Made by a program: the position numbers and the translations under genes. The notes under the pieces were generated by a model. The model was not told the origin of the DNA and ran no database searches. It saw only the letters and a list, made by a program, of their open reading frames with translations. A stretch of 50,454 nucleotides of DNA from the NCBI GenBank assembly GCA_031416255.1, contig JANOTI010000018.1, positions 1 through 50,454 of the forward strand, in the 5' to 3' direction. The stretch is from Sphingomonadales bacterium (GTDB lineage: Bacteria; Pseudomonadota; Alphaproteobacteria; Sphingomonadales; Sphingomonadaceae). Below are positions 1,693 through 2,993 of this stretch, piece after piece; position 1 is the first letter of the stretch, and each line of letters begins with the position of its first letter.

Positions 1693-2993
1693 TATTCGCC
1701 TTTCGTACCCGGTATCGGGCGTTCGCCCACAATCGATAGGCCGTAACCTTCAAGCCCGACCAGAGTGTGGTGTGTGTTTGTCAGCAGGATCATATCGTGT
1801 ACGCCCAATTCGGTTAGGATTTGTGCCCCGCCACCGTAATCGCGCAGTTCCTCCACCTCAGGCGCGCCTGCGCCTTTGCCTTCGGCGCGCAGCTGCATAA
1901 AGCGGGAGACCATGCCCTGCATAGGCTTGTTAATCACAACGATCACGCCGCAACCTTCGTCAGCAATCGCCTGCATCGAATTGGACAGCAACCCGGCGCG
2001 CTCATGCTCTTCGCCAAAGACATCGACGAACATCGACATCGTGTGCATGCGGACGAGCGTGGGCTGATCGGGATCAATCCGCCCTTTGACCAGCGCCATT
2101 GTTTCCTGCGCGGTGGCTTTGTTAAAGAAAGTCATCGCGGTCCATTCACCGCCCCATTTGCTGGTGAACTTCATCTCTGCGCGCTTTTCGACCAGATGGT
2201 CATGCTTGCGGCGATAAGCGATCAAATCGCGGATCGTACCCATCTTCAGATTGTGCATCCGGGCGAACGACACAAGGTCGTCCATCCGCGCCATCGTGCC
2301 ATCGTCTTTCATAATCTCGCAGATCACACCCGATGGATTGAGCCCCGCAAGCCGCGATATATCGACCGCCGCCTCGGTATGCCCTGCCCGCACTAGGACA
2401 CCGCCATCGCGCGCAGTCAGCGGGAATATATGGCCGGGAGAGACGATGTCGTCAGGGCCCTTCGACGCATCAACCGCGACCAAAATCGTCCGTGCCCGGT
2501 CAGCTGCGCTGATACCGGTGGTGACGCCCTCTTTTGCCTCAATCGAGACGGTAAATGCCGTTTGCATAGACTCGCGGTTGTCCTGCGCCATCGGGGCAAG
2601 GCCGAGCAGATCGCAGCGTTGTTTCGTCATCGTCAGGCAGATAAGACCGCGGCCATGCGTTGCCATAAAATTGATCGCATCGGGCGTTGCCATTTGCGCT
2701 GGGATAATCAGGTCGCCTTCATTCTCGCGGTCTTCATCATCGACAAGAATGTACATGCGGCCATTGCGCGCTTCTTCGATGATCTCTTCAATCGGTACCA
2801 ACGCAGGGGTATCGTCATTGGCAAAGAGATAGCTTTCCAGCTTGCGCAGCGTCTCTGCCGTCGGGTTCCAGTCGGACTGGTCCAGATCGCGCAGCGTGTT
2901 AGCGTGAAGGCCAGCGGCGCGGGCGAGGCCGGAGCGGGAAAGACCGCCGTCATTGACGAGCGAGCGTAATTTAGCGATGAGCTGTGTGGACAT
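1692..2993 (-). CDS. ribB: DHBP synthase RibB with an N-terminal Cro/XRE-like HTH and a C-terminal degenerate GTP cyclohydrolase II-like domain
   Basis: [30 protein letters not shown] and GVICEI motifs; N-terminal [28 protein letters not shown]-terminal domain keeps [12 protein letters not shown] but lacks the Zn cysteines. Confidence 0.95.

Follow-up and report, generated by a model that had tools for sequence, protein, structure and literature searches.

A Cro-type helix-turn-helix head on the riboflavin enzyme RibBX in Sphingomonadaceae, with a predicted operator at its own promoter and relatives in phage cro switches

Why does an enzyme of riboflavin synthesis carry a DNA-binding domain at its N-terminus, and what might that domain bind? 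The question is raised by one gene in the window, i.e., the whole stretch of 50,454 nucleotides of Sphingomonadales bacterium DNA that was analysed (contig JANOTI010000018.1 of assembly GCA_031416255.1). A preliminary description of this DNA had noted about 60 extra residues of Cro/XRE-like helix-turn-helix (HTH) type before a DHBP synthase (RibB) domain, in a gene heading a ribB-ribH unit with no ribD or ribE upstream and no FMN riboswitch ahead of it, and had suggested that the dimeric enzyme might be its own transcription factor, sensing substrate or flavin. The gene and its HTH had been seen correctly; the C-terminal GTP cyclohydrolase II (GCHII)-like domain, the palindrome at 3007–3022 and the phage relatives described below are absent from that account. 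The gene is laid out as follows:

1692..2993, minus strand: whole HTH-ribBX gene (ORF call), 433 residues; AlphaFold2 model pLDDT 89.2, pTM 0.80
2814..2993, minus strand: Cro/XRE-type HTH head, residues 1–60, with homologs among the stand-alone Cro-like genes of cI/cro-type switches
2214..2789, minus strand: DHBP synthase (RibB) domain, residues 69–260 (PF00926, E 1e-84; TIGR00506)
1719..2183, minus strand: RibX, a degenerate GTP cyclohydrolase II-like domain, residues 271–425 (PF00925, E 1e-34)
1270..1692, minus strand: ribH, lumazine synthase, whose ATG overlaps the ribBX stop (TAATG)

HTH-RibBX therefore joins an HTH to an intact DHBP synthase and a degenerate GTP cyclohydrolase II domain, and its gene does head a ribBX-ribH unit, ribD-ribE being on another contig (C123) of the same genome. 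The DHBP synthase domain scored 241.6 bits against TIGR00506 (cut-off 177.45), has the conserved acidic active-site motif, and on its sequence qualifies as RibB; it is the sole copy found in the window's genome (G000). Residues D88, R89, E90, E92, D94, C119, H205 and E207, which we take to have a catalytic role, are invariant across 82 fused and 19 unfused rows. The C-terminal domain scored 45.8 bits against TIGR00505, far under the RibA cut-off of 205.85, and has no cysteine motif, while a separate RibA on contig C23 has zinc-binding cysteines at the aligned position (RLHSECLTGD...CDC); due to this low score and missing motif we assign the window enzyme to RibBX (RibB with a cysteine-less GCHII-like domain, ribA being elsewhere) and not to RibBA, which has an active GTP cyclohydrolase II. 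The AlphaFold2 model also matched the fold of the Acinetobacter baumannii RibBX structure 6MNZ (E 8e-35). Divergent from the gene, at 3283–5493 on the plus strand, lies a 736-residue gene with a DUF305/CopM-like domain and an LVIVD/choice-of-anchor B-like region, which is not a repressor; Rfam searches of the window identified a small SRP RNA (5487–5581, minus strand) and a tRNA (28605–28678, plus strand), and no FMN riboswitch, as had been stated.

The head itself scored below the Pfam cut-offs: residues 7–56 gave 21.3 bits against HTH_31 (PF13560; cut-off 27), 19.2 against HTH_3 (PF01381; cut-off 23) and 18 against HTH_26 (cut-off 22). Its orthologs did better, 37 of 53 matching HTH_3 at E ≤0.1 (best 2.3e-7), and AlphaFold2 predicted a four-helix lambda-repressor-like fold (pLDDT 86.6; helices 2–14, 20–26, 33–36 and 46–60), such that the HTH claimed in the preliminary description holds on ortholog matches, predicted fold and homology to stand-alone Cro-like proteins. 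Structure searches with the head model gave middling scores, as expected for only 62 residues: Foldseek returned lambda-repressor-like matches that were weak by score (probability up to 0.99, TM about 0.63, none at E ≤0.001), and the top Z scores of a VIA search were 7.8 and 7.1. Nearly all listed fold neighbours are lambda-repressor-like (434 repressor, HipB, C-proteins, the MuB N-domain and the AcrIIA15 N-domain), and a PDB sequence search with the HTH profile found nothing below E 0.15. In five pairs of orthologs the head has 65–93% amino-acid identity against 44–54% identity at third codon positions, which shows that it is coding, and recognition-helix residues G28, L29, H30, N32, L34 and R35 are invariant in 53/53 rows. 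A true start downstream of the HTH, which would have undone the claim, was not seen: among the first 90 codons just two more could serve as in-frame starts, TTG65 and ATG80, and ATG80 already falls within the enzyme domain. The coding-type conservation, the invariant helix and the bimodal profile scores given below led us to reject a mis-called start or a chance extension as the source of the head. Homologs of the gene are annotated just as DHBP synthase/GCHII, the head having been missed. The reverse error also occurs: a 62-residue stand-alone Cro-like protein (P0210) carries the source name DHBP synthase/GTP cyclohydrolase II, an annotation transferred from the fusion.

We then asked how widespread the fusion is. 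Among 121 genomes of the sphingomonad family, 119 of which had a RibB match, the HTH-RibBX fusion was found in 88; 29 had only unfused copies, in two the match was fragmentary, and two had none. A profile built from just 21 stand-alone proteins recovered all 88 fused heads at E ≤3e-16 (two of its 90 strong rows in the family being stand-alone proteins), and head scores split bimodally, lying at 85–116 bits or giving nothing. Named relatives of the fused gene are those of Sphingorhabdus, Novosphingobium, Sphingobium, Sphingopyxis, Blastomonas and Erythrobacteraceae. A profile search of 401 genomes of the class found the fusion only in members of this family; none was found in 113 genomes of other families of the order, nor in 40 long-frame ribB loci chosen among the best 150 of 339 matches in the class, a thin sample. 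On the RibBX tree the fused/unfused label changes 11 times, at least five of these on starred branches. One genome (G105; loci L158 and L134) has a fused copy with the palindromic site discussed below together with an unfused copy that has no site. The comparison of the fusion with the FMN riboswitch, proposed in the preliminary description as a check, gave no contrast: RF00050 was detected in 0/121 family genomes (a control search was positive in 7/14 known genomes), and as fused and unfused genomes alike lack it the comparison is uninformative.

What the head might recognize is suggested by the DNA immediately upstream of its own gene, where the following features lie:

3007..3022, no strand: proximal palindrome and predicted operator, reading TCACACTGTGATGTGA on the minus strand (TCACA-N6-TGTGA) and ending 13 nt before the ATG
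3039..3054, no strand: distal site, 32 bp upstream, of which only the TGTGA half is good; direct repeat 3003–3018/3035–3050
3024..3029, minus strand: predicted −35 element TTGACG, proposed from its sequence and not listed by a consensus promoter scan
3000..3005, minus strand: putative −10 element TATTGC, 6 nt before the ATG

The proximal palindrome is the best position weight matrix site of the 2.59-Mb genome (26.1 bits; runner-up 15.2), and TCACAYNNNNRTGTGA has no second exact copy there. Aligned upstream regions gave an 18-bp consensus, ATCACATTNNAATGTGAT, in which both halves reach as much as 2 bits per base over some 80 genera, between flanks that are random. In leave-one-out scoring, the palindrome was present at ≥12 bits no more than 330 nt ahead of the RibB core in 90/90 fused loci (88 at ≥15 bits, median 27.6) and in 0/33 unfused loci, where all upstream DNA was examined (1.5–2.9 kb, including the ribD start in 24) and the best score was 7.7 bits. 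The 90 comprise 76 loci of the family sample and 14 named loci chosen by similarity to the query N-terminus; not counted were G098, distant paralogs of ribB, L111 (a duplicate of L021) and L045–L110, which come from other taxa except for two unfused loci of Sphingomonas. Held-out fused loci agreed, 17/17 scoring ≥12 bits in one set and 10/11 scoring >11 bits in a second, of which the eleventh had 9.6 bits with an exact core. Genome-wide, the exact pattern occurs in 63/88 fused genomes, usually once per genome, and in 1/29 unfused-only genomes (not at rib), compared with 2/121 genomes for the reversed pattern. The loci are kin, and the association of fusion and palindrome was upheld in five of five independent pairs, p 0.0625 being the floor for five pairs.

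The site appears to serve one promoter. In 30 fused loci it follows ribE and precedes ribB, which makes the promoter an internal one, while in 25 of the 33 unfused loci ribE lies upstream and there is no site. It is absent before ribD in the 18 fused loci where the region upstream of ribD could be scored, so that a loop acting here leaves the whole pathway uncovered, and in the window's genome none was found near ribA, nrdR or the reductase gene. We rejected a wider regulon: a 14.4-bit site at G000:C40:1194 was not conserved in 4/4 relatives. This site lies between genes that by eye are thyA-like and keto-acid dehydrogenase E1-alpha-like; three other hits in the same genome are inside ORFs. 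In two related loci a further strong site lies some 700 nt ahead of ribD, at the end of a gltX-like gene (named by eye) or just within it (L159:295, equal to L204:1496, 27.9 bits; L036:667, 32.7 bits), and there control may extend to the ribD operon. Isolated extra exact palindromes, some of them inside ORFs, were also seen in a few fused genomes, at L199:1333 (G108:C42), L201:1493, L197:1531 and the region equivalents of L198:2296, with no common target gene apparent.

On the minus strand the order is TTGACG (3029–3024), palindrome (3022–3007), TATTGC (3005–3000), six bases and ATG, the palindrome filling a predicted −35/−10 spacer of normal length (17–18 bp). This arrangement recurs: the palindrome ends ≤15 nt from the start in 76/90 loci (12–13 nt in 53), a TTG stands at −8 to −6 of the palindrome in 56/90 and a TA directly after it in 56/90, and an exact TGTGA occurs 28–34 nt upstream in 61/90 loci, compared with 12/1800 background windows. 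A −10 element six nucleotides from the ATG implies that the ribBX mRNA would be leaderless or nearly so; an SD-like word was found in 7/76 short-spaced versus 7/14 longer-spaced loci, the distal site being the one scored in some of these 14. The promoter fits the consensus weakly, and weak −10 elements are usual in Alphaproteobacteria according to the accessible portion of PMC8407463. The supplement of that study gives a start site for Novosphingobium aromaticivorans ribB (Saro_1582; NC_007794.1:1639614) with a predicted −10 of 'caatgt', which looks like part of the palindrome and would agree with an overlap of promoter and operator, though not with a TATTGC-type −10 after the palindrome. Start sites of ribB have been published for N. 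aromaticivorans and Zymomonas mobilis; the available parts of the PMC12710314 and PMC7566282 supplements hold expression values and one start site.

Where the head came from is suggested by small proteins that consist of little else. The closest stand-alone relative is an IMG/VR protein of locus L239 (53% identity over 58 residues, E 2e-22), and from a 50%-identity library we chose by eye 64 small stand-alone proteins of 51–121 residues, which ranked below about 70 RibBX-derived fragments and chimeras; 35 of the 64 end in AA, which we take to be a ClpXP-type degron. An annotated phage collection gave one weak match to the head. At the DNA level we examined 16 stand-alone loci, 11 on IMG/VR contigs and five in bacterial genomes. 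The Cro-like gene faces a divergent gene, which matched PHROG repressor families in 8/10 scanned, and in L218 a cII-like gene lies downstream. A related palindrome ends 10–16 nt before the ATG in 14/16 of these loci, in many cases preceded by TTG and accompanied by more sites farther upstream; L241 has no site, that of L242 is 33 nt away, and the distal site of L240 is mixed. L239 has two operators 31 bp apart, to which the host matrix gives 23.1 and 20.0 bits, and its helix is GLHPNTLR. Where the residue at the position of N32 is N, operators have A3/T14 as in hosts (six proteins), and where it is T or S they have G3/C14 (nine proteins), a covariation that comes from few clades and near-duplicate pairs and is also seen with the helix of the paired cI. 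The head is thus homologous to small genes divergent from cI-like repressors, and is itself not one of them, being fused to RibBX and facing the DUF305/LVIVD gene.

Based on these matches, the likely origin of head, promoter and operators is a joint capture from the cro switch of a temperate phage. We suppose a phage-to-host direction because the stand-alone form is the more widespread and diverse, with the enzyme taking the place of the free Cro C-terminus; the HTH tree (53 columns, seven label changes) is unrooted and poorly resolved and so does not establish a single capture or its direction. HTH and operator would later have been lost jointly several times, mostly leaving ribB inside a ribD-ribE-ribB-ribH unit. 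The operators of L239, together with three sites of 22.9–28.4 bits in a fused host (L202:1485–1617; G120:C21), speak for possible cross-talk between host HTH-RibBX and phage switches, while in two other fused hosts the operators of the resident switches have diverged, scoring 7.9 bits in G029 and ≤0.4 bits in G046, and speak against it. The sites in G120 lie between HNH/small-terminase-like and large terminase genes.

A Cro-like head with a phage-cro-type palindrome ahead of its gene points to self-repression, and we consider it probable, from these sequence comparisons, that HTH-RibBX represses its own gene. RibB is a dimer. The protein would bind the palindrome at the predicted promoter as a dimer, the enzyme pairing the heads two-fold, and would repress ribBX-ribH, two sites about 32 bp apart allowing cooperative binding. 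TTG, palindrome and TA would form a sigma70 promoter whose spacer is filled by the operator, so that binding would block initiation, and the minimum output would be a feedback loop setting the level of the enzyme. The proposal that the dimeric enzyme is its own transcription factor thereby gains strong comparative support (the palindrome goes together with the fusion, lies across the predicted promoter and is found again at phage Cro-like genes), with the correction that the enzyme is RibBX and not a bare RibB; as to the sensing of substrate or flavin, plain negative autoregulation would explain the data equally well.

With enzyme and DNA-binding domain in one chain and a cognate operator at a pathway gene, HTH-RibBX may on comparative grounds be counted as a trigger enzyme. 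In the strict sense operator binding would in addition be switched by a metabolite, either FMN, riboflavin, GTP or a pyrimidine intermediate at RibX, or ribulose 5-phosphate or a metal at RibB, making the protein a stand-in for the FMN riboswitch; this addition to autorepression we hold tentatively, as a serious possibility that falls somewhat short of probable. The absence of RF00050 from all the genomes would suit it, as would the short linker between head and enzyme and the invariance of R315, H317, D324, G387 and G389 of RibX. RibX is reported, in the accessible portions of 10.1101/2025.05.05.652280 and PMC10012899, to restrain and regulate DHBP synthase in Shewanella oneidensis and Rhodopseudomonas palustris, which makes it a natural sensor candidate, and RbkR offers a precedent (PMC5397151, as far as its accessible text goes). 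However, unfused genomes live with neither riboswitch nor fusion, ribD has no site upstream, and unfused proteins conserve the RibX residues just as well, so that these show no selection tied to the HTH.

The head could instead activate the promoter or control it dually. MerR-type spacer binders and RM controller proteins act in such ways, and a site in the −35/−10 spacer, the presence of two sites and the C-proteins among the fold neighbours would fit, as would RbkR, a likely activator by the accessible account in PMC5397151. In lambda, on the other hand, an occupied site over the cro promoter represses, and the geometry here is that of the cro genes of cI/cro switches, with a spacer of normal length. 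On balance we regard activation of ribBX-ribH as unlikely.

It is very unlikely that the palindrome is read by some other regulator (NrdR, a CRP/FNR-family protein or a cI-like protein in trans), the head being a passenger or having another role. NrdR boxes are 16-bp palindromes in tandem, about 31–32 bp apart, a geometry much like that seen here, and nrdR is present in the window's genome; yet nrdR was found in 5/5 unfused genomes tested while the motif is missing from 28/29 unfused genomes, and in 6/6 fused genomes the DNA ahead of the ribonucleotide reductase gene lacks the motif (best 2.9 bits). As the motif tracks neither nrdR nor nrd genes, we rejected an NrdR box. For a global regulator many sites would be expected, and most fused genomes have one. 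Phage cI proteins do share operators with Cro, but a cI homolog was found in only 8/121 family genomes and not in that of the window, and a cI in trans was rejected for most genomes. By comparison across genomes, the fused head is the only candidate that tracks the site. That promoter and cro came from a prophage, landed before ribB and now serve as promoter and leader peptide only is extremely unlikely, for while 29 genomes do without the fusion and in 3/5 pairs conservation is higher in the enzyme core than in the head, the recognition helix is invariant and the palindrome halves are conserved against random flanks.

Autorepression by HTH-RibBX would offer a possible answer to how a riboflavin gene is controlled in a large bacterial family without FMN riboswitches, naming a defined protein with a predicted operator and promoter in loci that include named Novosphingobium, Sphingobium and Sphingopyxis. 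It would also be a host circuit apparently built by capture of a phage switch, one that can be aligned with its phage relatives in protein, operator and spacing. CoaBC, too, has an N-terminal head of this Cro family in 3/30 loci read (3/42 coaBC matches) of a neighbouring family (f211):

L306:1019–2428 and L305:991–2481, both minus strand, and L327 (protein P0266): Cro-CoaBC fusions with a Cro-family head

In one of these, TCGCAAATTAATGTGA stops 13 nt short of the ATG (10.1 bits); because no clear site was seen for the other two, and 14.8 bits are reached at two unfused coaBC loci, an operator for Cro-CoaBC cannot be taken as established. RibBA also has an HTH partner, a different and canonical HTH_3, in 20 proteins (P0121–P0140) related to a Vulcanimicrobiota locus, 18 of which have the cysteine motif; this head is distant from that of the window (hhalign probability 71%), and the fusion is probably a convergent enzyme-repressor. 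In two such loci (L101:2989–4398 and L087:2986–4059) the predicted −35 is overlapped by the near-palindrome TTGACA-NN-TGTNAA, and an FMN riboswitch was matched in neither genome. The Cro-CoaBC fusions and the different XRE domain on RibBA suggest a general route to enzyme-repressors. More speculatively, and we think this doubtful, the phage cro cassette (gene, promoter and tandem operators) might be a reusable plug-in, captured more than once by Alphaproteobacteria onto oligomeric cofactor enzymes (RibBX and the flavoprotein CoaBC), whose oligomeric and ligand state would determine DNA binding, so that a repressor responsive to flavin would stand in for the riboswitch; given the near-identical operators in some phages (L239 and the L202 terminase region), host HTH-RibBX and phage Cro/CI would then regulate each other, and lysis-lysogeny decisions would be tied to flavin supply.

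HTH-RibBX thus appears to be real, conserved and undescribed in print: we found no paper on an HTH-RibB or HTH-CoaBC fusion in the full-text literature, most subscription journals being outside its coverage, and a term search of the accessible text of PMC5381585 returned nothing relevant. Among known systems, lambdoid Cro with P_R/O_R resembles the window in its small HTH gene and a promoter overlapped by tandem palindromes, with homologous sequence and spacing; the window differs in having neither a divergent cI nor prophage context, Cro having become the N-terminus of a housekeeping enzyme. The RibBX proteins of Shewanella, Aeromonas, Rhodopseudomonas and Acinetobacter share an active RibB, a GCHII-like domain without zinc cysteines and an operon with ribH, whereas an N-terminal HTH and an operator are not described for them in the accessible portions of 10.1101/2025.05.05.652280, PMC10012899 and PMC12458113. 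BirA, NadR and PutA, as outlined in the accessible part of PMC5397151, likewise join a cofactor or amino-acid enzyme to a DNA-binding domain that represses pathway genes; the enzymes are other ones, and ligand control is established for them, whereas that of HTH-RibBX is hypothetical. The closest parallel in that text is the archaeal riboflavin kinase/regulator RbkR, also a flavin-pathway enzyme fused to an HTH with a palindromic operator, which binds as a dimer, replaces the FMN riboswitch and has lost its DNA-binding domain in some lineages (PMC5397151). RbkR, however, combines a winged HTH with a CTP-dependent riboflavin kinase, neither of which the window protein has, and is an experimentally tested, proposed activator of a multi-gene regulon released by FMN, whereas HTH-RibBX has a Cro-type head on DHBP synthase-RibX, apparently a single promoter, a predicted role as repressor and a phage-like origin.
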